Made by a program: the position numbers and the translations under genes | Part shown: positions 5,690 to 18,165 of the stretch, piece by piece | How the letters are laid out: every line of letters begins with the position of its first letter | How positions within the stretch are numbered: the first letter of the stretch is position 1 | The notes under the pieces: model-generated | Told to the model about the DNA's origin: nothing | Databases searched by the model: none | What the model saw: only the letters and a program-made list of their open reading frames with translations | Source: a bacterium | GTDB lineage: Bacteria; Electryoneota; Electryoneia; Electryoneales; Electryoneaceae | Length of the DNA stretch: 64,000 bases | Assembly: GCA_963669175.1 (NCBI GenBank) | Contig: OY769902.1 | Span: 4,352,001-4,416,000, forward strand | Reading direction: 5' to 3'

Positions 5690-7960
5690 TTATTTGACCA
5701 TCATAACCTTTTTTGTCTGTACCTGGCTGTCTGTCTGTACAACGAGGAAATAGGCACCTGACGCCCAAGTCGACATATCTACTACATACTCATTCTTTGT
5801 TGAAGGAAGGTCAATTTCTTTAACCAATTTTCCTACGACGTTATAAATTCTTGCTTTCGCCGGCTTACTGTTTGGAAGATTATAAGTTATTGTCAAACTA
5901 GCGTTAAAGGGATTAGGATAAGCATCAAACAGAAAAACATCCGGCTGAACAGATGCTTGCTTTTCTGGCATAGAGAGGTTTGAAATTGGTAAATGACACA
6001 ATCCTATGGATGTTGATATCCAGATTTGCTCGGCGTTTTCATCAAAATAGATTCTTTCTATCATATGTGTATGGCCCGGATAAGGAAATGGCTCATCCAA
6101 CACATGCCAACTAGCGCCATAATTGTCACTTAACCATATTTTATCAAAACCGTTCGCGACAAAAACCGTATCTTCATCTCGAGGTACAGCTATGGTGGTA
6201 TATGTATCATAAGGATATTCACCCTGCACAGACCAGGTATTGTTGTGCCATCGCCAATACAAATCATCACTTCGCACAAAAATTTCATCATCATTAATCA
6301 TGATAGGTGAAGAAGGCCAACCGAGATACGAACCAGGGTGATTTGTAGCTTCCCAACTCTCGCAATTATCATAAGACAAATAGATATCTCGATTTCCAAC
6401 ACGGCAAATTACTGAATCGCCAACTACTAAACGAGAAGCATAATCATTATCTGCAAAATCCGATCTTCTCCAGGTCAAACCTAAATCGCTCGATATCATT
6501 AACCCAACAGGATCCATTGTACTTGCATAAATATAGGTACTATCACCATACTCTTCCTGCCATATATACGCATCGCTAGTATAAAACGGTGTTTCTACAT
6601 ATGGCGTCCAAGATTCTCCACCATCCGTCGAAATAATGAAGTTTACAATGTCAACAGGATCATAAAATGGACGTTGATAATAACGTGCGATCAATGTATC
6701 CCCTCCGGCAAACAGCAATGGCCACATTGTGCACAGCGTGTCTTGAGCCACTGGAAGCGCGATTTCATGCCAATCTCCTTCAATTCCAGTCTTTTTCCAT
6801 ACTTGTTTTGATTCATGGAGACAATAATAGTCGTTATCATAGAACAACATATTTCCCGGAGAACCTAAGTTCGGTGCAGATATAAGCTCCCATTCTTCGC
6901 TCACGGTTGTCTTGAAAAAACCTCCAAAGCCATTTGCTGCCAGGTATATTGTTCCGGAAAACCGATTCTGCCAGATAGATCCTGTTCTGAATACGTTTTC
7001 AGGAAGTCCCTGTAAAACCCTGCTCCAATGATATCCGCCATCTTCAGATTTGTATATTCCAAATTTTTGATCTCCTATCATGTATATATCATTGGGTGCA
7101 AAATCCAACAGTAATTTTTCCGGCATAAACCGTTGTGCCACTCCACCGAATATTCTCTCCCATGATTCGCCATTATTCTCCGAAATGAAGACATTGCCAT
7201 CATCCCATCCATCCGCATACGACAGTGGACTGCCACATAGCACAATTATATTTTCAGATAATTTTATTACATCTTTAAAATTATAATCATCATTACCAAA
7301 CAACTCATGCATATTAAATATGTTTTCCCAACTTCCTCCATTATCATTACTTCGTGAAACACCTTCCATATAATTAGGATCTTGTCCAGTATATATATAA
7401 ATTGAAGTAATAAACAATTCATCTGTTTGAGAGCATAATATTAGCGATTCCTTTTGATTATATGTATTGTCTGTATACAATATATTCCAACTTTCCCCAC
7501 CATCCTGCGATCTTGCAAAATACTGATCATTAAGAAAATACCATTGATCAGGATTGTTTGTATCTATGATGAGATGTTCACCGGCAATATTAAAGCCCGC
7601 ACCGCTGAAGGATTCCTGCATAACAGACCACGATTCACCGCCATTAAAACTCAGGAAAGTCAGCGAATCGTGATTAGCAGTGATCTGAAGAAATAGTGTA
7701 TCACCATTGGCATCATACATATCGATATTGGTAAGCGATCCCATATAGCTGGAAAAATGAACAGGCGACCAGTTTTGCCCTCCATCTTCAGTCATCCAGA
7801 TCCCTGACCCCATTATTTCAGCCAGTATTTTCTCTCCACTGGAATCAGCGACAATGAAATCAAAGTTGGGTCCACCAAAAGGATCTAAAACCCATGAAGC
7901 CTTTGCATAACAACTGATAATCAGGACTATCATCAATGACAAATGGTATTTCAATTTCAC
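5690..7960 (-). CDS. Secreted BNR/Asp-box beta-propeller protein with T9SS-type C-terminal domain (paralog 2)
   Basis: Colinear with 1872..4160 (shared IWQNRFSG, TNHPGSYLGW, QGEYPY); GTG start with GGAGGAGG RBS; AYPNPFN C-terminal domain. Confidence 0.88.
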   Translation of the reverse strand: MKLKYHLSLMIVLIISCYAKASWVLDPFGGPNFDFIVADSSGEKILAEIMGSGIWMTEDGGQNWSPVHFSSYMGSLTNIDMYDANGDTLFLQITANHDSLTFLSFNGGESWSVMQESFSGAGFNIAGEHLIIDTNNPDQWYFLNDQYFARSQDGGESWNILYTDNTYNQKESLILCSQTDELFITSIYIYTGQDPNYMEGVSRSNDNGGSWENIFNMHELFGNDDYNFKDVIKLSENIIVLCGSPLSYADGWDDGNVFISENNGESWERIFGGVAQRFMPEKLLLDFAPNDIYMIGDQKFGIYKSEDGGYHWSRVLQGLPENVFRTGSIWQNRFSGTIYLAANGFGGFFKTTVSEEWELISAPNLGSPGNMLFYDNDYYCLHESKQVWKKTGIEGDWHEIALPVAQDTLCTMWPLLFAGGDTLIARYYQRPFYDPVDIVNFIISTDGGESWTPYVETPFYTSDAYIWQEEYGDSTYIYASTMDPVGLMISSDLGLTWRRSDFADNDYASRLVVGDSVICRVGNRDIYLSYDNCESWEATNHPGSYLGWPSSPIMINDDEIFVRSDDLYWRWHNNTWSVQGEYPYDTYTTIAVPRDEDTVFVANGFDKIWLSDNYGASWHVLDEPFPYPGHTHMIERIYFDENAEQIWISTSIGLCHLPISNLSMPEKQASVQPDVFLFDAYPNPFNASLTITYNLPNSKPAKARIYNVVGKLVKEIDLPSTKNEYVVDMSTWASGAYFLVVQTDSQVQTKKVMMVK

Positions 7961-8114
7961 GCCTCCTCCAATGACTATGCTTAAGTATTATGATGTTATA
8001 TGAGAATTATTATATACATATATATATGACACTTATAGCGATCTAAAATAACATTCTACTAAAATCATGAATAGTATTTGACCGCTATAAGTATCATATT
8101 TATAATATTAGGTC

Positions 8115-8622
8115 TTAATTTGTTGGTGATGATGCATATCCCGGTGACATCCAACCACATGCGTCATGTATTGAATAAGATGCGGACCCAAAATAACATT
8201 GACCAGAATTTTCTGATATTTCTACATAGAATATTGTTAATCCACCAGATAAATCGACACTTTGTCTCACTTCATAGTATGGATTAGCCATACTTCTAGC
8301 TTGGGATTCAGTAATCGTCAACTTATTCCGTTCATTAGGATATAAATATCCTTTAATTGCTTCTGAATCGCTCGAATTTTGCTCATCTAATCGAAACCAA
8401 TCAAGTCTGATAGTGGCTGTTGCATCTTCTGGTCCCAACACCATATAGATAGATTGATCAGAAACAGTGTTTACCCCAGCTATCCCTGCAACAGAAGCTC
8501 CTCCGATATAACTACACTCCCACCATACCGGAAGTGGCTCTTGTTCATCACCGGAGAATTGTGCATTGGCAAAACCTAACATCAAAAAAAAACATCACTG
8601 TACTAATGATTACGACTCTCAT
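8115..8622 (-). pseudogene. Small secreted protein frameshifted in a T9 run within its signal peptide
   Basis: AGGAGG RBS and ATG at 8622 (MRVVIISTVMFF). Nine T (A run 8584-8592) put it out of frame with 8115..8585; eight T give the continuous signal peptide MRVVIISTVMFFLMLGFANAQ. Confidence 0.7.
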
Positions 8623-8862
8623 CTTACACCTCCTGAATTAGTTTACAGATACATGTATAAACTGTATATACTTTTATGAATAGTCAAGTCTCTGGAGAGT
8701 CACATTTAACTTGAAATAGGTATAATAGTTTTACTCAAGAAAAGAATATTGATATGATACAATACCATTATTCTTATCTGTTGACAAATTTAAATGCTGT
8801 CTAATCTAATAAACAGACTGAAAAGCATGCCATAATAAAACCAGGGAAAGATAAAACAAGGG

Positions 8863-9480
8863 ACAGGGCATGGCCGGGCTACTCTGCATTAGTACGGGCA
8901 TCAATATACAAAGAGATCGGGTGGCCCGATTTTGCCCTGTGATGATGATGGTGATGCTGTTGTCGTACTTGATGATTCGGGAACAGGGCTTTCTCGCATA
9001 TCGTACTCAGATAGGCAAAGTCGGGATTGTAACAAAATCTGCCAATCAAACATTGGTCCTAATAGTGAACATCGCAACAATCCCGACTTGCCTCCTAAAA
9101 GCGTCTCAGACACAACCCTTCTGGCAATATACATAAGCATTCAAGAAAGTCAGCATCACAACATGGCAAATCGGGCCACCCAGCCGGGACATGATCGGGT
9201 ACTCTAAGGAATAGATATCACAATCGATCTCTGTCCCGATGCGCTCATAACTGTATTCTGTGTCAGGGTTTCCCCAGAGTATTTGAGGATGCCGTTCTAA
9301 AGGAAACAGGTTCAGTTGCAGAACGGGCCACCCAGGCTCCCGACTTGCTCATCATCCACATCACAGGCCTACGACTCACAAATATTGTCATCACATCGAG
9401 AGGATCGTACTACACTTCCGGCAAATCGGGCCATGCACTCTTTTGCGGTACTGTTAGAAACGTACAGGGCCACCCGTCTG
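8863..9480. repeat. Degenerate array of palindromic non-coding units (GGCAAATCGGG[CCACCC] ... CCCGAyTTGCC)
   Basis: Motif copies near 8867, 9014, 9165, 9317, 9420 and 9466, with reverse-complement partners at 8925-8936, 9082-9092, 9235-9244 and 9339-9348. Confidence 0.6.
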
Positions 9481-9801
9481 AGGTAAATAAACAGGCATCT
9501 CTTTGCAGAAAATGGGGACTGTTACACTTTTACGCCAATGAATTGGCAAGAATTACAAATAATAGTTGATATACATACCTGATTACGTGTTATCCGAGAA
9601 AACTTATTGCGAAAAAGGTAACTGTACCAACATTTTCGTATATAAGCTAATCAAGCTGGAAAAAGCGAAAAATTCGGTACAGATACCTTTTCATCAATAC
9701 TTATTGAGACTGTCCTGCATTTGAGGATATGAAAAGGTATCAGTCCCATTTTTCACTTCTTTATCCACTTGAACATGTCCCCCTCTCATGCAGAGCACAA
9801 G

Positions 9802-9828
9802 AAAAAAGCCGCCCGGAAAGAGGCGGCT
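9802..9828 (-). terminator. Intrinsic terminator after the cold-shock gene
   Basis: AGCCGCC-8 nt-GGCGGCT stem followed by a U-tract on the minus strand. Confidence 0.75.
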
Positions 9829-9869
9829 CTAAACCCTGAAAGGGCGGATAAGTCAATCAACTGACTGCA

Positions 9870-10079
9870 TTACCCAACTCGTCTGACGTTCTTTGCTGAC
9901 GGTCCCTTGGGGCCCTGATCCATCTCGAACTCAACTTCTTCGCTCTCGGTCAGCGTCTTGAAACCGTCACCGGTAATCGCGCTGAAGTGAACAAACACAT
10001 CCTGTCCACCTTCGACCTCGAGGAAGCCGAATCCCTTTTTCTCGTCAAACCATTTCACTTTGCCGTTCATCTGGAACAT
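9870..10079 (-). CDS. cspA: Cold-shock protein
   Basis: [15 protein letters not shown] (RNP1), DVFVHFSAI (RNP2), [10 protein letters not shown]. Confidence 0.95.
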
Positions 10080-10191
10080 GACCTTTCGTTAGAAAATCCG
10101 CTCGACATCCCTTTGGTGAACTTCTGCTGTTGTTGGTAACACCTGGACATATCAGCCAAAAAATAACAGGTACAACCTATCGAAAACTTCC

Positions 10192-10605
10192 CTACGCTTT
10201 TTTCTTGATCATGGTTAAAATCTTGTCGCCATTTTCTTCAACATGATATTCAACTTCATCCATAAGTTGTTTTACGAAGAAAATACCGAGGCCGCCGATG
10301 GAGCGTTCTTCCAGCGGCGCATCGGGGTCCGGCTCACGCACATTATCATAATCAAATGGCTTCCCACGCTCCCGCAAGCAAATCAGCAATTGATCTTCCT
10401 GTTCTTCCACTGTCAGGGAGAACGATTTGGACGGGTCTTTTTCAAGACCGTGTACGATCGTATTGGTGCAGGCTTCATCCACTGCCACCTGCACATCCGA
10501 AGCAGCCGTGTCATCAAGCCCAACACGATCACTCGCTTCCGCCACGAGCTGGCCAATGTCCGCCAGGATCGCGGTATCCGCCGGGAACTGGTACGTTTTA
10601 GTCAT
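10192..10605 (-). CDS. Anti-sigma factor / Ser-Thr kinase (RsbW-like HATPase)
   Basis: VAVDEACTNTIVHG N-box; GKPFD; GGLGIFFVKQLMDEV G2 box. Confidence 0.9.
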   Translation of the reverse strand: MTKTYQFPADTAILADIGQLVAEASDRVGLDDTAASDVQVAVDEACTNTIVHGLEKDPSKSFSLTVEEQEDQLLICLRERGKPFDYDNVREPDPDAPLEERSIGGLGIFFVKQLMDEVEYHVEENGDKILTMIKKKA

Positions 10606-10638
10606 ACGATGCCATCCGTTCCACACCGTAATGGTGTT

Positions 10639-10983
10639 CTACTGGAAGTCCGCTATCGCCTCATCCACAGTTGGGAAAAGCTTCAGGACACGATCCATGC
10701 CTGAGATTTCGAAAACACGCCTGACAGAATCCTGCAACGCTGCGATCTTCAGATCACCCGCCTTGTCCTGACGCAATGTTTTCACGATCACGAGCACAAC
10801 ACGAAGCCCGGCGCTGGCAATGAACGGCACCTTTTCCATGTCAAGCACCAACTTGCCATTACCACCATCAATTTTCGTCTTGAGGTATTGCTCCACCTTT
10901 CCCGACGTACCGGCGTCAAACCGGCCATCAAGGTGAACAATGACTACCTCGCCCTTCTGACTTTCCGAAATCGACATCTGCAT
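10639..10983 (-). CDS. STAS-domain anti-anti-sigma factor (RsbV/SpoIIAA-like)
   Basis: LDGRFDA, LVLDMEKVPFIASAGLRV with the phospho-acceptor Ser, VFEISG. Confidence 0.92.
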   Translation of the reverse strand: MQMSISESQKGEVVIVHLDGRFDAGTSGKVEQYLKTKIDGGNGKLVLDMEKVPFIASAGLRVVLVIVKTLRQDKAGDLKIAALQDSVRRVFEISGMDRVLKLFPTVDEAIADFQ

Positions 10984-11064
10984 GGCGTTACCTTCTTTTG
11001 TAACAGTGTATGTTGCAAAACTGAATGACAAGCTACCGCTGAATAATCAAACTGACATGATACT

Positions 11065-12012
11065 CTACAACTCGAGATGCAGACCTTCACTTGCCAGTAC
11101 AACCGCAAGTTTGCCGTCCTCGCTGCTCAGCTCACAATACTCCTGCGATTTATCCAGGATCTCCACCAGTTTCTTATCGTCATAAGCCGGTTCATGATGC
11201 GTCAACACCAGCAGTTCAACATTGGCTTCAACCGCAAAATCGATCCCGGTGAAGGAGTTGGAATGTCCCCAGTCCTCCTTCTCCACATTCTCCATGAAGG
11301 AATACTGCGCGTCAAAAATGACCACGTCCGCATTCTGGAAAAAGCGAATAATGGGCGTAACAGCATCCTCACTCAGGTCATTGTACTCGGAGTCGGTGCT
11401 GTACACAATCGATTTTCCCTGCCGGTTCAAACGATAGCCGTAACTGGAACCGGGGTGATTTTGAGTCTTGTTGACAACTTCAACATCACCGATCATGAAA
11501 CGTGTGTTCGGACGCAACTGGTGGAAAATGATGTTCGCGCCCATATCCGCAAGCGCTACCGGGAAAAACGGCGGCTGCTGCTGGGTACGGAAACGATATT
11601 CCAGATCCGGATGGACACCGTAGATATGAATGTTGTTGCCACGAATGTAGGCTGGGACAAAGAAGGGAAAACCTGCGATATGATCCCAGTGCGTGTGTGA
11701 CAGCAGGATATGCACATCCATGGGCTGCCCGCCTTTTCGACGCAACAGGTCCAGCCCCAACCGTCTCAACCCGGTGCCGGCGTCAAGAATAATTGTCTGG
11801 TCGCCTGCGATCACTTCATAGCAGGATGTGTCCCCGCCAGCCGTCTGTGTTACGTACCAGGGCAGTTCTTCCAGAAATCCCGGAATCTCGTCTTTCCGGG
11901 TAACACCGGCGTCCATCGCCCTTGACAGGGCATTTTCTATCTTCCAAAGAAGTTCGGAATTACTTAACGGAGCAGCGATTGAACCACGTACTCCCCAACA
12001 ATGGAGTTCCAT
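11065..12012 (-). CDS. MBL-fold metallo-hydrolase (putative phosphodiesterase)
   Basis: WGVRGSI, DAGTG, SHTHWDHIAG (HxHxDH), DAQY, WGHS and HHEP motifs. Confidence 0.88.
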   Translation of the reverse strand: MELHCWGVRGSIAAPLSNSELLWKIENALSRAMDAGVTRKDEIPGFLEELPWYVTQTAGGDTSCYEVIAGDQTIILDAGTGLRRLGLDLLRRKGGQPMDVHILLSHTHWDHIAGFPFFVPAYIRGNNIHIYGVHPDLEYRFRTQQQPPFFPVALADMGANIIFHQLRPNTRFMIGDVEVVNKTQNHPGSSYGYRLNRQGKSIVYSTDSEYNDLSEDAVTPIIRFFQNADVVIFDAQYSFMENVEKEDWGHSNSFTGIDFAVEANVELLVLTHHEPAYDDKKLVEILDKSQEYCELSSEDGKLAVVLASEGLHLEL

Positions 12013-12250
12013 GTTCCTCTCTTGCAGGATGGTATATCTGCGCCCTCTCCCGTGGGCACACCTAGCAAATGTAAACGCTTACGAGTTGCTGAGCAAGGGG
12101 ATTCGTTCCTGACACCTGTTAAATACGCTAAAATGCGGACTCTCTGCAAGACATTTTCTCTGCAATAGGGCCAGATCTCTTGTTAAAATACCTTTTGGTG
12201 CCGTACACTTTCAAATCACACCAATATTTCAACCACGCCAGGAGGTACGC

Positions 12251-13138
12251 ATGCGCATCCTGACTCGTGCCGATCTTGATGGCATTGTCGCCGCAGCCAT
12301 GATCATGGAACACGAAGAAGTCAACGATATCCTGTTCGTCCATCCCAAGGACATGCAAGACGGGCTGGTCGATGTTCAAAAGGGTGATATTCTTTCAAAC
12401 CTGCCGCTGCATCCCAACGCCAGCATGTGGTTTGACCACCATAACAAAGCTGAAGAAGTTGAAGAAATGCCGGACGGTGTGCGTGGTAAAGTCGGTGTCG
12501 CCGATTCCGCCGCACGTATCGTCTACGAGTATTACGGGAAAGCCAAGCTGAAACGTTATCGTGAGATGCTCGACGAAACCGACCGTCTCGACAGTGCAAC
12601 CCTGACTCACAAGGACGTCCTCGATCCCGACCGCTGGATCCTGTTGGGCTATACCCTGGACCCGCGCAGTGGATTCGGACGCTTCCGTGAGTATTCCATG
12701 GAGATCATCAACGCCATCCGTGAAGGCATGACCATCAACGAGATGCTGGAGCTGCCGGGCGCGAAAGCACGGATCGCCAAGTATTTCGAGGATCAGGAAG
12801 CCTTTAAGGCCGCACTGAGCAAACATACCAAAATGGTTGCGAATGTGTCGGTCACGGACTTCCGTGGCATAGCAGATGTCCCCAAGGGCAATCGTTTCAT
12901 GGTCTTCGCCCTGTTCGACCAGTGCAACATCAATGTCCGCCTCTACGACCACCGTGATGAGGATAAGGTCATGTGCGCGGTTGGCAAGAGCATCTTCGAC
13001 CGCTCCCACCCGACCCATGTCGGCCAACTGATGGACGAATACGGCGGCGGTGGCCTGCCCGGAGCCGGAACCTGCCCGATCCAGAAAGACAAGGCGGAGA
13101 AAACAATCAAGGAGATCATCGGAAGACTTACAGTGTAG
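12251..13138 (+). CDS. DHH-family phosphoesterase (exopolyphosphatase / nanoRNase-like)
   Basis: TRADLDG, HPKDMQDG, FDHH, SAAR and C-terminal GGGG motifs; AGGAGG RBS. Confidence 0.85.
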   Translation: MRILTRADLDGIVAAAMIMEHEEVNDILFVHPKDMQDGLVDVQKGDILSNLPLHPNASMWFDHHNKAEEVEEMPDGVRGKVGVADSAARIVYEYYGKAKLKRYREMLDETDRLDSATLTHKDVLDPDRWILLGYTLDPRSGFGRFREYSMEIINAIREGMTINEMLELPGAKARIAKYFEDQEAFKAALSKHTKMVANVSVTDFRGIADVPKGNRFMVFALFDQCNINVRLYDHRDEDKVMCAVGKSIFDRSHPTHVGQLMDEYGGGGLPGAGTCPIQKDKAEKTIKEIIGRLTV

Positions 13139-13144
13139 TTAGAT

Positions 13145-13214
13145 GAATTAGGAATTAGGAATTAGGAATTAGGAATTAGGAATTAAGAATTAAGAATTAG
13201 GAATTAGGAATTAA
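13145..13214 (+). repeat. Heptamer tandem repeat (GAATTAG/GAATTAA) x10
   Basis: Read directly; starts just after the DHH gene stop. Confidence 0.95.
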
Positions 13215-13251
13215 ACAGTTTTACATACATACTGTTGCATAACAAGTTTTG

Positions 13252-13340
13252 ATTGTATTGTATTGTATTGTATACCATTCTATCCTGTGATATGCCTGTG
13301 ATATGCCTGTAATTTACCTTTAATTTACCTTTAATTTACC
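13252..13340 (+). repeat. Cluster of short tandem repeats: (ATTGT)x4, (CCTGTGATATG)x2+, (TAATTTACCTT)x~3
   Basis: Read directly from the sequence. Confidence 0.85.
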
Positions 13341-13372
13341 CCTGCTTGCTTACAAGCAGGGGTAATTTTTTT
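13336..13372 (+). terminator. Intrinsic terminator
   Basis: TTACCCCTGCTTG-CTTA-CAAGCAGGGGTAA followed by a T-tract. Confidence 0.85.
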
Positions 13373-13630
13373 CTGAAAATGGATTTTCATTTATAGCTTT
13401 CAACAACACAATTGTCAGCCAGGGTGGCCTGATCCGCATGTGATGCAACTTCCATTATCGCTACGGCAGAAATACTCTTGCCTTATCAGGATTCAAGCCA
13501 GTCCTCATGAGCGCATCAGGACAAGGCGTTGTATTCCAGAAAATGATCTCACGATCTTTCCCTGTCCATCAGGTCGCCTGTTTCACTTACTATTAGGAAA
13601 TATTTCCGGTAGGTTTTCAGTTGATAGTGG

Positions 13631-14461
13631 TTACTTTTTCTTGTCCTTTTTCGTTGTATCTTTTTGTTTATCTTTAGGTTTAAGGTCAGGATGATACTGC
13701 ATCACCAGTTTCTGATATTGGACCACTGTACTACGTCCGAGTCCGGTAGTACGCACAATTTCCATCAGATTAAGTTCTTTGACCATCAGGAACTTGATGT
13801 TTTTGTAAGATCGCAAGTAACGACCCACCGCTTCAAGGGTATGCGTGGTCAAGCGAGCGATATCCGGTTCCGGATAGCCCTGTTCGTACAGGTCAATGAT
13901 TGCGGCCTTGTGTGTGGGACGGCTTCCCTGGTCCAACATGATTCCTTTCGTCGGCAGGATGTCATCATGCGTTTCGTGATACTGTTGGATGTACTTGCCA
14001 ATGGTCGTCAGCGACCGGTTCAACAACACACTCAATTCCGCGCCGCTTAATAACCCGCCTTGTTCGTACGCGCTTTTCACCAACCGCGCCAGCACTGCAA
14101 TATCCCTGTCGCGCTGTTTGCCCGCACCGTCTTTTCCATAGTGGCGACGAATACGATCAACCACATCTTCTTCAGTGACAAGCGGAAGAATGACGGTCTT
14201 CACCTCATAGTCTTCTACCCGTGTCCCATAGCTGGGCTTGTGGCACTGTGCACCTGTCGTACGCCACACAATACTGCCACCGCTGCGTTGCTCGATATCC
14301 GGATAGAACTCACGGTGCAGTTGCATGATGTCATCCGCCACCATGGCCAAGACCTTGTGGCTGCCAAGAATCTTGTACTGCTCTTCCAACAACCGGATGA
14401 TCGCAGTGCGAAAGTTCCGCTTCGGCAGGGATTCATAACGGTTCCGTACCTCAGTTTTCAT
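13631..14461 (-). CDS. DUF1670-like HTH protein B
   Basis: AYEQGGLLS...PTKG...DQGSRPTHKAAIIDLY...HTLEAVGRY; GGAGG RBS before ATG at 14461; overlaps the stop of gene A. Confidence 0.8.
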   Translation of the reverse strand: MKTEVRNRYESLPKRNFRTAIIRLLEEQYKILGSHKVLAMVADDIMQLHREFYPDIEQRSGGSIVWRTTGAQCHKPSYGTRVEDYEVKTVILPLVTEEDVVDRIRRHYGKDGAGKQRDRDIAVLARLVKSAYEQGGLLSGAELSVLLNRSLTTIGKYIQQYHETHDDILPTKGIMLDQGSRPTHKAAIIDLYEQGYPEPDIARLTTHTLEAVGRYLRSYKNIKFLMVKELNLMEIVRTTGLGRSTVVQYQKLVMQYHPDLKPKDKQKDTTKKDKKK

Positions 14462-15284
14462 GGACGCCTCCGCCACCTTGTCCCGCTCTTTTTTTTGAGG
14501 GATACTGTGCTTGCAACTGCTCCAGAAGTTCGACATAGCTTGTCGGCCAGTGATCACCCTGTTTGTATTTTGCAAACAGATCCAGGTACTCACCCGTCAA
14601 CCGTTCGCTCTGTTGAAGCAGACGGCTCAGGTCGGTCAGCTCGGTAATGTCATGGCTAAGCAGAAGCAACAAGCGTCCAAACGTACTCACATAGCGCTTG
14701 ATCGCAAACGCGCTGTGACGTGTCAGACGGATGATCTCATCATAGGTCCGGCCACCCAGGTACAAATCAACGATCCGTGCCTTGTGCGATAACCCACGCC
14801 CAATGTCATGGTCGTAGCCACGCGTATGCACCGTATTCCCGTCAGCAAGCAGCAACGCAATATCCTTGCGGATGGTCCGATCTGAAACGTGCAGCAGACG
14901 ACTCAGATCCTCCTGTGTCAGCAACCCACCCTGCTGGTACGTCTCTTCGGTTAGCCGAAGAATCCGTTGCTGACGAAGCGATGAAGCGCCCAGTTCGCGC
15001 AGAACATCCAAGTCCTCAACACCGTCATCCAGTGTCAGTTCGACACGAATCAGGTCTTGTTCGCGTAAGGGACGACCGTGACGAGCTTTCTTGGACGCAC
15101 ATAAAAAACGAAGCTTGCCAAGCGTTGACGGCATCGTACCGAACAAACAACGCTTGGCAAGCTCCAATATCCCCGTACTCGCAGCCGGTGAAAGCTCAAA
15201 CTCGCGACGAAGCGAGTTCACAAACACCTGCTCCGGCGTCTTCTCCATACACCGGTCATACAGGCTCGTTGAAGTATGTAACAT
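14451..15284 (-). CDS. DUF1670-like HTH protein A
   Basis: RLTEETYQQGGLLTQEDLSRLLHVSDRTIRKDI...HTRGYDHDIGRGLSHKARIVDLY...HSAFAIKRY; GGAGG RBS before ATG at 15284; paralogous to gene B. Confidence 0.82.
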   Translation of the reverse strand: MLHTSTSLYDRCMEKTPEQVFVNSLRREFELSPAASTGILELAKRCLFGTMPSTLGKLRFLCASKKARHGRPLREQDLIRVELTLDDGVEDLDVLRELGASSLRQQRILRLTEETYQQGGLLTQEDLSRLLHVSDRTIRKDIALLLADGNTVHTRGYDHDIGRGLSHKARIVDLYLGGRTYDEIIRLTRHSAFAIKRYVSTFGRLLLLLSHDITELTDLSRLLQQSERLTGEYLDLFAKYKQGDHWPTSYVELLEQLQAQYPSKKRAGQGGGGVHEN

Positions 15285-15383
15285 CTTGTCCTCCAGCATG
15301 TTACGCGATCGCTTCCGATTGCCAACCCGAATACAAAGGTCGCAAACAAGAAGCAAATCGCCAAACCTACCGGAAGTATTTCC

Positions 15384-17609
15384 TTATTTTAACAATATAA
15401 TTTTTCTGGTAAAAGTTTGTTTACGATAATCTATTTGAAGAAAGTAGGTGCCGCTGGCAAGATTGGGAGCTTCAGAATCAGTATTGAAAGTCCACCTGTT
15501 TTCGCCGGAAAGATAGTATTCTCCTGTTGAATACACCTGTTCACCCAGAATATTATATAGATTCATGGTTACAAAGCCTGATTCTGGAAGAGAGAAAACA
15601 ATAGTAACAGTAGAGTTAAATGGATTCGGGTAAATATCTGTCAATGCAAAAGTCGCAGGCACGTTGAAAGATAATTCATTGTCAATATTATCAAGATCAT
15701 ATGTGTAATATATAGCTATTCCGTCTGTAAAAGATGAGTTATAAATAATATTATTTGAACAATATATTCCAGCTGCACCCATTGGATAGTCAGGCAAGTA
15801 GTAGCCAAGTTTATTATAATGCATACTATCATCAAATTCCAATATGTAAATTGTATAATAATCTCGTATATTGGCTGACACACCAGCCATATACATTTTA
15901 TTTTCATACATAATCATATCATGTATTACTAATATACTATCAATACAAGCTTCTTCTGTAATATATTCACCATCATTACTATTTATTCTGGATATTTTTA
16001 TATATGGGTTATCATATGGATAATGTACGCAATATATAAAACCATTAGATGTATCAATATTACTGAACAATCCTTCTATGGGAATTTGTTCCGTAAAGAC
16101 CGGCAATACAGGATTACTGATATCATAAACAGCAATTCCTGAATCGTTTGCACAATAGGCAGTTGAATCAAGTATCGCATGAACAGCTTGCGGTTGGTCC
16201 ATTATGGTCAAACACTCCGGATTAGATGGATCGGAGACATCCATAATGGCTAACTGGTTGATTCCGGTCGTCACATAGATGTAGTCGCCAATCCCTTGAA
16301 TGAAACCGTTTGATCCGATGGGCTCTTCTGGGGCTGACAACAACTGGGGGTGGACAGGATCGCTGACATCGAAAATCAGTAATGGATGCGTCAAGTACAG
16401 AAAACCAGAATAGATTTGTGGAATACTTACTGTCATTAAATCTTCAATATGCAGATAATTTACAACTTCCGGAGCAGCGGGATCCGAAACGTCAAGTATC
16501 CAAAGATCCTTTGTTGCATCAACAGCGTATAGAATCGTATCCAGAATAGCCAGATCATAGATCGCATAAGGCGCAGCAAAATAGCCAATCTCATGGACCA
16601 GGTTCGGGTCGGTTATATCGAAACAACGTACCCCTCTTCGGTCATCACTGATATACGCAATATCATCTTCTACACTTAGTTGCGAGGCTCGATAGAACAC
16701 TGGATTCATGGTAAACAGACTGTCAGGCATGGTTGGATCGCTGATATCAAGAGCAAGCATTCCCTTGGAATGACCATAAATGTCTTCAGACAGGCCGATA
16801 AAGGCCAGCGTATCATAAATGTCAATTTGCCAGGCAATATAATTCAGGCAGTATTCGGCTAATTCAACCGGGTTCAGCGGATTACGAATATCGTACGATT
16901 TTACTATTGTAGAGTCGCCCATCCAACAGGTCAGCCAGGCAACACTGTCCTTGATGGCAATTTCCCGGACATCTTCCAAGGCGATGGTTGACACGGCATG
17001 AGGCACTGATGGATCACTGACATCAACCACCTTACAGCCGGAATCTTCCGCAGTAACAAATAGATAATCGCCCAACACATCAATACAACTGACTGTCGCA
17101 CAAAATGGGCCAAGATAATAACCGATTTGCGTTGGATTTGCTGGATCAACAATATCAACAATAACTGTTTCACGATCACTTTGCATGAACAGTAGCGAAT
17201 CCTGCAGGATAATTCTATCAAGATTGCCGTTGAACAGAATATGGCCGATTAGCGCGATATCAGAAGGATTGCTGACGTTGAAGATGTATAAACCTGGTAC
17301 AGTTGCCATATCATCATTGGCAAACACGGCATAAGCCAGAGAATCCCGCACCACAACATCCTTGCAAGTGGCATCGCAGATAAACGAGTCCAGTTCAGTG
17401 GGGTTGGTCGGGTCGGAGACATCCAGAACACGCAGGCCGGTCCAGTAGGTGGCGACACAGGCAATGTCATCCTGTACATCCAACCCGAAAGCAAAGCTCC
17501 AGTTGTGATGCACCTGTGACAGCAGGCTGACATTCAAGCTGTCCTGACCGAATGACAACAGCGGACAGAATAATAAAAGTATCATCACGTATCTGAATAA
17601 AACCTTCAT
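15384..17609 (-). CDS. Secreted LVIVD-repeat beta-propeller protein with T9SS-type C-terminal domain
   Basis: Many (V/I)(L/F)D(V/I)S(D/N)P-x-x-P repeats; signal peptide; IYPNPFN...GTYFLQI...RKIILLK. Confidence 0.9.
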   Translation of the reverse strand: MKVLFRYVMILLLFCPLLSFGQDSLNVSLLSQVHHNWSFAFGLDVQDDIACVATYWTGLRVLDVSDPTNPTELDSFICDATCKDVVVRDSLAYAVFANDDMATVPGLYIFNVSNPSDIALIGHILFNGNLDRIILQDSLLFMQSDRETVIVDIVDPANPTQIGYYLGPFCATVSCIDVLGDYLFVTAEDSGCKVVDVSDPSVPHAVSTIALEDVREIAIKDSVAWLTCWMGDSTIVKSYDIRNPLNPVELAEYCLNYIAWQIDIYDTLAFIGLSEDIYGHSKGMLALDISDPTMPDSLFTMNPVFYRASQLSVEDDIAYISDDRRGVRCFDITDPNLVHEIGYFAAPYAIYDLAILDTILYAVDATKDLWILDVSDPAAPEVVNYLHIEDLMTVSIPQIYSGFLYLTHPLLIFDVSDPVHPQLLSAPEEPIGSNGFIQGIGDYIYVTTGINQLAIMDVSDPSNPECLTIMDQPQAVHAILDSTAYCANDSGIAVYDISNPVLPVFTEQIPIEGLFSNIDTSNGFIYCVHYPYDNPYIKISRINSNDGEYITEEACIDSILVIHDMIMYENKMYMAGVSANIRDYYTIYILEFDDSMHYNKLGYYLPDYPMGAAGIYCSNNIIYNSSFTDGIAIYYTYDLDNIDNELSFNVPATFALTDIYPNPFNSTVTIVFSLPESGFVTMNLYNILGEQVYSTGEYYLSGENRWTFNTDSEAPNLASGTYFLQIDYRKQTFTRKIILLK

Positions 17610-18165
17610 CCGTTCGATCCTTCCGTGCATTGAAATATCATTGTGTAAAAAGTATCATACTCTACCTCTACATGCAACTCAATCAAGATTATATTACTTG
17701 TTTGTACGTTGAAGGAGCCTGTTGCCGATTAAGAGAACCCGAATCACTGTTTCCTCTTTTCTTTAAAAGAAAATCCTGATTGACTCGTCAAATGTGCGTA
17801 TCCTTCGGAAACAATTGGTGTGGAAGCCTTTGTATTCCCGGCGCTTACGCACCACGCTATTCAAGTGTCACCTCTTCGAGGTGATTTGGCCGCCTTTACC
17901 ATTAAGTACATAGTATCCAGCCAGTGGTTTACCCAATCGATACAGCGAATAGCCCTATTTATAACCGACGCGCCTTCACTGCATTCCCGCTACGGATAAC
18001 ACTGAGCAGCTATGCACGTCCCATCCCGATAACTGCGATTCCCGGGTTGCTTGATTACCTGAAAGAAGTCTATCATATAGTGGATAGATGGAATTCTTCA
18101 CTAACCATCTGAACAGATCAAGCGAGTTTATTGCACAGTGAGAACATCAACCGGAAAGCCCGACG

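Follow-up and report, generated by a model that had tools for sequence, protein, structure and literature searches.

A mobile element with a pair of DUF1670 genes at the 3' ends of genes for type IX secretion cargo

What can move a piece of DNA that has the ends of an insertion sequence (IS) and, between them, only two genes of a family of unknown function? The question is raised by a stretch of 64,000 nucleotides (hereafter, the window) from a bacterium of the Electryoneota (assembly GCA_963669175.1, contig OY769902.1). It contains a unit of 1,790 bp, measured between the outer edges of two 22-bp inverted repeats, AGGAAATATTTCCGGTAGGTTT and its complement with one mismatch (21 of 22 positions match). 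The interior is filled by two minus-strand open reading frames (ORFs), orfB and orfA, which overlap by 11 nt (ATGAAAACTGA). The inverted-repeat pattern occurs in only two places in the window, with 0.00 matches expected (100 shuffles). An earlier reading made from the sequence alone (the sequence-only reading) had described these repeats and two overlapping paralogous genes of ~277 aa, assigned to DUF1670, and had proposed a mobile element that lacks known transposase domains, duplicates 4 bp of its target, and is moved by a putative heteromeric transposase made of the two proteins. The repeats, the gene pair, and the family were correctly read: Pfam PF07900 matches both products (165.6 bits for orfA and 155.1 bits for orfB, with a cut-off of 25 bits), which are paralogs (35% identity over 145 aa, E 1e-14). 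The features and their coordinates are collected in Table 1. We are nearly certain that the element is mobile, that it is specific for the tails of one class of genes, and that it heals the gene it enters. The best explanation overall, and a probable one, is that positions 13589-15387 of the window are an active copy of an undescribed IS-like family whose enzyme is the DUF1670 pair.

The genome that carries the window (G000; 5.45 Mb, single contig) contains seven full-length copies matching unit positions 1-1790 with a listed identity of 100% (rounded), one intact copy at 67% identity (L008), and a 150-nt remnant. The flanks of the seven near-identical copies are unrelated loci, and their boundaries are sharp at the repeats, as is generally expected of an IS. 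All 16 DUF1670 frames of this genome are open. In two sequencing runs (X1 and X2), the repeat is collapsed into a separate contig of 1,803 nt, exactly window 13587-15389, with a depth around five times that of the flanks (157 versus 27-35, and 220 versus 42-44). Empty sites, the other general mark of an IS, were found in G001, a genome of the same genus, in which the orthologs of the target genes of L003 and L004 end normally, with AGG TAG and AAA TAG, and carry no element; at ~70% DNA identity, the exact pre-insertion sequence is not readable from these sites. For the target genes of L001, L002, L005, and L007, no usable ortholog of the gene end was found in G001. The particular empty site that had been predicted, CTAYTTACTATTT, has no match in G000. 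We found neither footprints nor gene-less derivatives (miniature inverted-repeat transposable elements) in G000. One set of 41 genomes has DUF1670 in 2, and the 79 genomes of the phylum have it in 3 (each count includes G000); many of the phylum genomes are fragmented metagenome-assembled genomes (MAGs) in which repeats may be unassembled. Multiple copies, conserved ends, and empty orthologous sites thus bear out the proposal of a mobile element built on a tandem DUF1670 pair.

The placement of the copies is far from random. Every copy in G000 directly follows a co-directional ORF ending in ..(L/V)(L/V)K, and the first base of the element completes the TAA stop of this ORF. In the window, the target protein matches PF18962 (E 3.7e-11) and TIGR04183 (E 2.3e-12) with residues 666-745 of 748, i.e., with the C-terminal domain that sorts cargo to the type IX secretion system (T9SS). 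Elsewhere, 50 of the 53 upstream tails of at least 60 aa match PF18962. A model built from the upstream tails identified 329 sorting-domain tails in G000, and all eight elements, as well as two solo-end remnants described below, stand at one of them. The orientation relative to the target is the same in 59 of the 61 elements for which it can be tested. The unselective insertion implied by the sequence-only reading must therefore be replaced by a site- and orientation-specific one, at the last codon of T9SS-domain genes and with a 2-bp repeat. The coding consensus of the tails is AAR AAR ATG NTN YTN NTN AAR TAR, with ~20 bp conserved. The information content of the tails equals that of this coding consensus, with none downstream of the stop, so recognition, as we infer it, must read the ~20 bp encoding K-K-M-x-L-L-K-stop. 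Nothing is conserved past the stop of the unoccupied tails of G000, which indicates that the 6-nt spacer found on the far side of the element arrives with it.

We examined 116 related loci (29 from species-representative genomes, 80 from metagenomes, and 8 own copies), of which 87 carry both inverted repeats, 1.77-2.07 kb apart; two of the 87 (L028 and L065) were mis-paired by our script. The upstream hexamer, which includes the first base of the element, has the form NN+ATA+A in 80 of the 87 (AAATAA 76, AGATAA 2, CGATAA 2). The variants AAATGA (two), CGATAG (two), and AAATAG (one) all end in a stop as well and, the mis-paired loci aside, the hexamer always encodes Lys or Arg followed by a stop. 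An A in the third position keeps Lys, Arg, Gln, and Glu, and the fact that the tip variants (ATG+A, ATA+G) still make a stop suggests selection for repair. At the other end, the spacer is lineage-specific (AATAGT 34, AAACGT 25, AATAGA 12, others 16; n=87), and in 80 of 84 cases the hexamer past it consists of a sense codon followed by a stop. This downstream hexamer varies freely, combining AAA, AAG, AGA, CGA, CGT, or AGG with TAA, TAG, or TGA, and it differs even among the near-identical copies of G000 (AAATAG four times, AAGTAG once, AAGTGA twice). The two hexamers agree at positions 1 to 6 in 81, 82, 57, 81, 67, and 41 of 84 elements, respectively. Any stop codon puts a T at position 4, which leaves bases 1 and 2 as the part that the hexamers really have in common; both match in 81 of 84. 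When the codon is not Lys, the pairs are AG/AG (two), CG/CG (three, once CGA versus CGT), and, as an exception, CG/AG (one); the matching cases show that the duplicated pair of bases derives from the target. Such variants occur in closely related elements, as in L041 (AA) and L049 (AG), which have 82-84% protein identity. The true direct repeat is thus 2 bp, TT in the orientation of the window. The ends found in G001 fit this scheme: its AAA TAG equals the displaced AAA TAG of G000, and its AGG TAG is closer to the displaced AAG TAG than to the AAA TAA made by the element.

The 4-bp target duplication did not survive this comparison. The TATT on both sides of the unit (13591-13594 and 15385-15388) is identical at all seven near-identical copies, whereas L008 has GTTT versus TATT. 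In the seven copies, it is part of a longer common left flank, (Y)TTACTATT, and of the common right flank TATTT, and hence is not a variable target duplication. Tandem DUF1670 pairs of other genomes do have the conserved inverted repeats that the sequence-only reading led one to expect (87 of 116 loci), without variable 4-bp duplications. Three other accounts of the junctions were considered and dropped: a perfect 5-bp duplication of AAATA, because its two copies differ in identical elements; a downstream codon and stop carried along from the donor site, because the downstream hexamer varies among identical copies and the upstream one is constant; and a 6-nt heteroduplex overlap similar to that of Tn916, which predicts the target version upstream in about half of the cases, yet AAATAA is upstream in 76 of 87. 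At one locus (L094), the codon-plus-stop unit is doubled after the spacer (AATAGT AAATAG TAAATAG TATAA); elements may have come and gone here repeatedly, or one of the second type described below may have been lost.

The simplest reading of the junctions is that the element proper consists of ATA, the region from repeat to repeat, and the 6-nt spacer, 1,799 bp in total in the window, and therefore reaches 3 nt beyond one inverted repeat and 6 nt beyond the other. We propose that the element enters the last sense codon behind its second base, usually at AA|R (Lys) and sometimes at AG| or CG| (Arg), and that the first two bases of the codon would be duplicated in the process, as suggested by the 84 junction pairs. 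The ATA of the element, together with the first A of the repeat, would then remake the same amino acid and a stop, leaving the secreted protein unchanged, and the native third base and stop would be pushed to the far side, behind the spacer. The multi-helix-turn-helix (HTH) DUF1670 proteins, probably as an A/B hetero-oligomer, would bind the repeats at their dyad-symmetric tips (GGAANNNNTTCC). They would also recognise the ~20-bp consensus of the sorting-domain tail, much as TnsD does at glmS, and would perform, or recruit, breakage and joining with a 2-bp stagger. The elements of this type are co-directional with the target gene and abut its stop, so read-through from the cargo gene may feed orfB.

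Some sites may record the past of the element. At two positions of G000 (G000:C1 ~800637 and ~2946988), a T9SS tail runs into the upstream repeat, which breaks off after its first 14-16 nt, and the 150-nt remnant (L009, G000:C1:2071034-2071185) matches the upstream end with 78% identity. These solo ends and the remnant suggest that old copies were deleted and that the rebuilt stop stayed in place. Several unoccupied AAA TAA tails of G000 are followed by GGAA or GGAT (e.g., TAA GGAAGCTG, TAA GGAAGACA, and TAA GGATCACTTCC), which may be very old remnants of the first bases of the element or chance. In a Fibrobacteres MAG, a degraded DUF1670 fragment (L050:3368-3766; 45% identity, no long ORF) lies shortly past a T9SS gene ending in ..QRIVLMR*. 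The fragment resembles a decayed copy at a typical target.

The ends have a symmetry of their own. The repeat consensus over the related loci is A GGAA RWWY TTCC GGT WRG T, and the outer 12 bp form a dyad, a perfect palindrome in 32 of the 62 distinct left ends and in 32 of the 62 distinct right ends. The rare changes in the dyad affect both halves together (GGCAATATTGCC and GGACACATGTCC). This pattern in the sequences points to a putative binding site for a protein dimer. Folded as single strands, the ends do not differ from shuffled sequences (z about 0) and form no stable hairpins.

The family is widespread. Related loci come from MAGs labelled Ignavibacteriaceae, Bacteroidetes, KSB1, Neomarinimicrobiota, Melioribacteraceae, and Lentisphaeria, as well as from metagenomes. 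We found 1,628 homologs of orfA (E≤1e-3) among 3,604 candidates scored and 469 of orfB among 4,293, and the DUF1670 homologs fall into 931 clusters at 50% identity. The metagenome contigs with homologs are mostly 1.0-2.6 kb long, about the length of the element, as expected if assemblies break at repeats. The collections of plasmids and phages gave no tblastn match to the proteins of the element.

Of the 13 DUF1670 pairs in another genome (G042; 6.5 Mb, one contig), seven are of the type described above (first type) and six of a second type. The latter is 1,832 bp long, has the repeats CATATGACC(A/T)(G/A)AGGA, and carries its genes antiparallel to the T9SS target (e.g., L146:517-2348). In all five copies that we read (L146, L149, L152, L154, and L155), one end is ..K AAA TAG TAT|IR and the other is IR|CACTAAACTTT followed by AAA or AAG and TAA or TAG (IR, inverted repeat). 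Two lineages with different ends and opposite orientations thus share the same splitting and rebuilding of the last codon and stop. In one tandem (L034/L149), an element of the first type entered a tail rebuilt by one of the second type. The presence of the second type next to the first explains the motif TATCA(T/A)ATGAC found after the displaced stop in around ten metagenome loci. Relatives are also found in the MAG of an ANME-2 archaeon (G041; L143, L144, and L148/L153), which has 16 DUF1670 matches, including a tandem pair. The ends of this pair, GGCCAAATGACC.. and ..GGTCAT(T/A)(A/T)G(T/G)CC (also GGTCATATGGCC), resemble those of the bacterial second type, and TTATTT lies past the right end in all three archaeal copies. 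The archaeal target cannot be a T9SS tail.

What the two proteins do has to be read from their conservation and predicted structure. Both genes are under purifying selection: where dS is estimable, the ratio of nonsynonymous to synonymous rates (dN/dS) is 0.09-0.13 for orfA and 0.04-0.24 for orfB. In the AlphaFold models (pLDDT of 67 and 62), an N-terminal alpha/beta part precedes three HTH-like units, with a conserved loop of low confidence (DILPTKG..DQGS.PTHK) as the link. The prediction of an orfB-orfA complex gave a median score of 0.29, for a mark of 0.32, which weighs neither way on binding. Among 60 representatives with 24-47% identity, H184 and Y215 are invariant, and at least 90% share G62, L92, R126, A131, L138, P170, G173, D177, G179, K185, H207, and Y249. 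The His/Lys/Arg/Tyr set recalls that of tyrosine recombinases, whose catalytic set is R-K-H-R-H/W-Y. No acidic triad is conserved family-wide, D177 being the only acidic residue kept, which speaks against DDE chemistry. Natural fusions contain two DUF1670 units in ~540 aa or three in ~930-950 aa (P0288, P0319, P0272, P0273, P0278, and P0287), and a genome of the same phylum has a fusion frame of 511 aa (G046:C207:247-1647); we found no other Pfam domain in the fused proteins. The fusions support a joint action of the paralogs, whether or not these do the chemistry. A search of PHROGs returned only weak HTH families, and one of the ESM Atlas only DUF1670 clusters. Current annotations call the products of DUF1670 genes hypothetical or label them regulators ("biotin operon repressor", "CsgD family regulator").

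The claim that the pair has no known transposase domain held in every comparison made: neither domains nor IS-family models match (Pfam, NCBIfam, Foldseek, PDB, hhalign). For the DDE families, there is no DDE Pfam match at E≤1. All NCBIfam models stay far below their cut-offs; the best of the IS models, which include those for IS630, IS21, IS3, and ISNCY, is IS21, with 12.8 bits for a cut-off of 160 and over the HTH only. For tyrosine recombinases, the hhalign comparison of a 60-sequence DUF1670 profile with the ten catalytic domains of G000 gave a probability of 1.1%, and PF00589 is not matched. For serine recombinases and IS607, only the HTH_7 part gives a weak match (E 0.0065), with no PF00239 at E≤1. 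Members of IS200/IS605 have sub-terminal hairpins, no inverted repeats, and a Y1 HUH transposase; here, inverted repeats are present, the ends lack hairpins, and no HUH family matches. The element thus fails membership of every enzyme-defined family that we could test, i.e., the DDE models and the tyrosine, serine, and HUH enzymes.

Several observations weigh against our interpretation and should be set beside it. Pfam and NCBIfam scans of both proteins detected DUF1670 and HTH families and no catalytic domain. The PDB sequence search had 0 matches at E≤1, and Foldseek found nothing at E≤1e-3; its weak top matches are multi-HTH DNA binders (sigma factors, TFIIB, the DNA-binding domains of Mos1 and SETMAR, Pax5, and resolvase). 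With such mediocre pLDDT values, a small novel catalytic fold could be missed, and equally none may exist. In the models, the conserved H/K/R/Y/D residues are mostly in or beside predicted HTH helices and may just be DNA contacts. As for mobility, we saw no same-species empty site, circle junction, or excision product, and no joint in the contigs of four runs of one study. The non-Lys support for the 2-bp rule comes to six junctions only, one of which (L045, CG versus AG) disagrees. Finally, none of the eight displaced stops in G000 is TAA, yet 130 of the 255 Lys-ending tails of this genome end in TAA, a bias that our model does not explain.

Who breaks and joins the DNA is the main point on which explanations differ. 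We lean, on sequence evidence, towards the DUF1670 pair acting itself as the recombinase. The proteins could instead be mere DNA-binding factors for targeting and synapsis, with breakage and joining done by an enzyme of the host, e.g., a tyrosine recombinase. They do look like strings of HTHs lacking a recognisable catalytic fold, G000 encodes ten tyrosine recombinases, the repeat tips are dyad-symmetric like the sites of recombinases or repressors, and a small HTH factor is known to activate XerCD in Xer-dependent integrative elements. However, the same design occurs in at least six bacterial phylum-level groups, with relatives in an ANME-2 archaeon, so the partner would have to be universal. 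Moreover, tyrosine recombinases produce overlaps of 6-8 bp, unlike the 2-bp repeat found here, and on inspection of the sequence the ends have no visible likeness to a dif-type site. We regard this explanation as rather unlikely. The lack of a catalytic domain could also mean that the element is non-autonomous and is moved in trans by a classical transposase encoded elsewhere, the pair being cargo or a regulator. Yet the repeat motif (≤4 mismatches) occurs in G000 only at the eight elements, at two or three remnants, and as scattered chance singles; it is never paired elsewhere, which leaves no second element with the same ends to supply the transposase. All 87 full elements, from many lineages, have retained both genes, under purifying selection, and the second lineage has the same gene pair with different ends. 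All of this makes a transposase in trans improbable.

The remaining explanations concern the placement rather than the enzyme. The TATT flanking the copy in the window would suit the model of the sequence-only reading, an IS of the usual kind that duplicates 4 bp and is hardly selective in its targets, found at T9SS genes because harmful insertions elsewhere were selected against; its constancy at the seven copies and its absence from L008 contradict this, and selection alone cannot be the cause of a base-exact position and of a single orientation (59 of 61). We give this explanation hardly any credence. It is scarcely more probable that the pair is a domesticated regulator of T9SS cargo genes, spread by gene duplication and not by transposition. 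The constant adjacency to such genes and the DNA-binding nature of the proteins would be accounted for, but the unrelated flanks of the seven identical copies, the sharp boundaries at the repeats, the empty orthologous sites of G001, and the patchy distribution all disagree with it.

How does the element relate to known ones? One close likeness is to IS630/Tc1-mariner elements, which have inverted repeats, a 2-bp target duplication (TA), paired HTH domains, and a DDE/DDD catalytic domain. The DUF1670 element has terminal inverted repeats, a 2-bp duplication, and a paired HTH DNA-binding part, and the weak matches to the Pfam families HTH_23, HTH_28, and HTH_29 and to the Mos1 and SETMAR domains point in the same direction. 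It differs in lacking a DDE/DDD domain, in duplicating AA, AG, or CG instead of TA, and in having two paralogous genes, asymmetric extensions of 3 and 6 nt, and strict targeting of gene ends. In this targeting it resembles Tn7, which inserts downstream of glmS through TnsD reading the 3' coding end of this gene, duplicates 5 bp, and has five genes including those for DDE and AAA+ proteins. In both cases, the conserved coding sequence of a gene end is recognised, the gene stays functional, and the orientation is specific; the DUF1670 element, however, enters the last codon and repairs the gene, and its target is a domain family with 329 tails in G000. Phages and islands that insert at 3' ends of tRNA or protein genes (e.g., e14 and phage 21 in icd) likewise bring their own copy of the gene end, with synonymous differences, and displace the native one. 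They use tyrosine integrases and long segments of identity, whereas the DUF1670 element replaces 4 nt, has a repeat of 2 bp, and shows the negligible profile probability given above (1.1%). Insertion specific in sequence and orientation is also typical of IS110/IS1111, IS200/IS605, and IS607, from which the element differs by the absence of DEDD, HUH, and serine-recombinase domains and by its long terminal inverted repeats. We read it, chemistry aside, as a new IS family that combines traits of IS630/Tc1, of Tn7 at attTn7, and of gene-end-replacing integrases.

We also propose, tentatively and at somewhat less than even chances, that DUF1670 represents a new class of transposase or recombinase: a hetero-oligomer of two paralogs, unrelated to DDE, DEDD, HUH, serine, tyrosine, and Cas1 enzymes, which would make 2-bp-staggered insertions, specific in sequence and orientation, in the last codon of a conserved domain tail, with ends that re-encode codon and stop. 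We found no paper mentioning DUF1670 or PF07900 by name in the searchable text of 8.1 million papers and 0.36 million preprints, and nothing on such an element in the part of the wider literature covered; an ISfinder entry, unpublished or orphan, may exist. An enzymatic role of the pair would add to the textbooks a class of transposases that is categorically new, and would give a function to a large DUF family found across many bacterial phyla and in Methanosarcinales-type archaea. The targeting is unusual regardless of the enzyme: the element would read a protein-sorting signal at the DNA level and mend the codon and stop that it splits, with the hundreds of T9SS cargo genes serving as harmless landing pads, and two lineages with different ends have arrived at the same position. 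This raises the questions of neutrality by design, of possible expression through read-through from cargo genes, and of whether a small system of two proteins could serve for precise insertion in a defined orientation. DUF1670 elements also break metagenome assemblies at T9SS genes, which matters for annotation.

Table 1. Features of the DUF1670 element and its target gene in the window.
Feature	Positions	Strand	Remarks
Putative displaced native end of the T9SS gene	13583..13586	-	Would be the original third base and original stop; with the repeat, AA|G TGA; suggested by the downstream-hexamer pattern of related loci
2-bp direct repeat, downstream copy	13587..13588	.	Plus-strand TT = AA, first two bases of the native Lys codon
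6-nt element-borne spacer outside the downstream inverted repeat	13589..13594	-	AATAGT in gene orientation; same in all 7 copies
Downstream terminal inverted repeat (IRR)	13595..13616	.	12-bp dyad GGAAATATTTCC at the tip
orfA, 276 aa, DUF1670, multi-HTH protein	13631..14461	-	PF07900, E 1.4e-48
orfB, 277 aa, DUF1670 paralog	14451..15284	-	PF07900, E 2.3e-45, plus HTH_11
Perfect 16-bp inverted repeat, 20 nt between arms	15112..15163	.	Inside orfB
Upstream terminal inverted repeat (IRL)	15363..15384	.	Outermost base 15384 = third base of the new TAA stop of the T9SS gene
Element-borne ATA (gene orientation)	15385..15387	-	Third base of the remade Lys codon and TA of the new stop
2-bp direct repeat, upstream copy	15388..15389	.	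Junction comparison; boundary of the collapsed repeat contig
Target gene, LVIVD-repeat protein with T9SS type A C-terminal sorting domain, ending ..RKIILLK*	15384..17630	-	PF18962, TIGR04183

The two genes are the only ones of the element and are translationally coupled, with GGAGG standing ahead of the ATG of orfA. The antisense ORFs have no Pfam match, and the Rfam scan of the element found no family near its gathering threshold. A sigma-70-like site lies inside the element (15325-15298), although such scans mean little in this bacterial group. The inverted repeat inside orfB coincides with the codons for the peptide motifs LAK and LGK, which are mutual reverse complements, and 5 of the 17 lineages checked have a stem, of different sequence, in this position. 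A structure in RNA or DNA is one possible meaning, a side effect of the coding another.

To the left of the element, the intergenic region at window 13131-13220 contains a tandem array of around 12 units of the 7-mer GGAATTA. Similar arrays match dozens of places in the related genomes G001, G003, and G006, and arrays of this type pile up to depths of 5,900-14,000 in the contigs of the sequencing runs.

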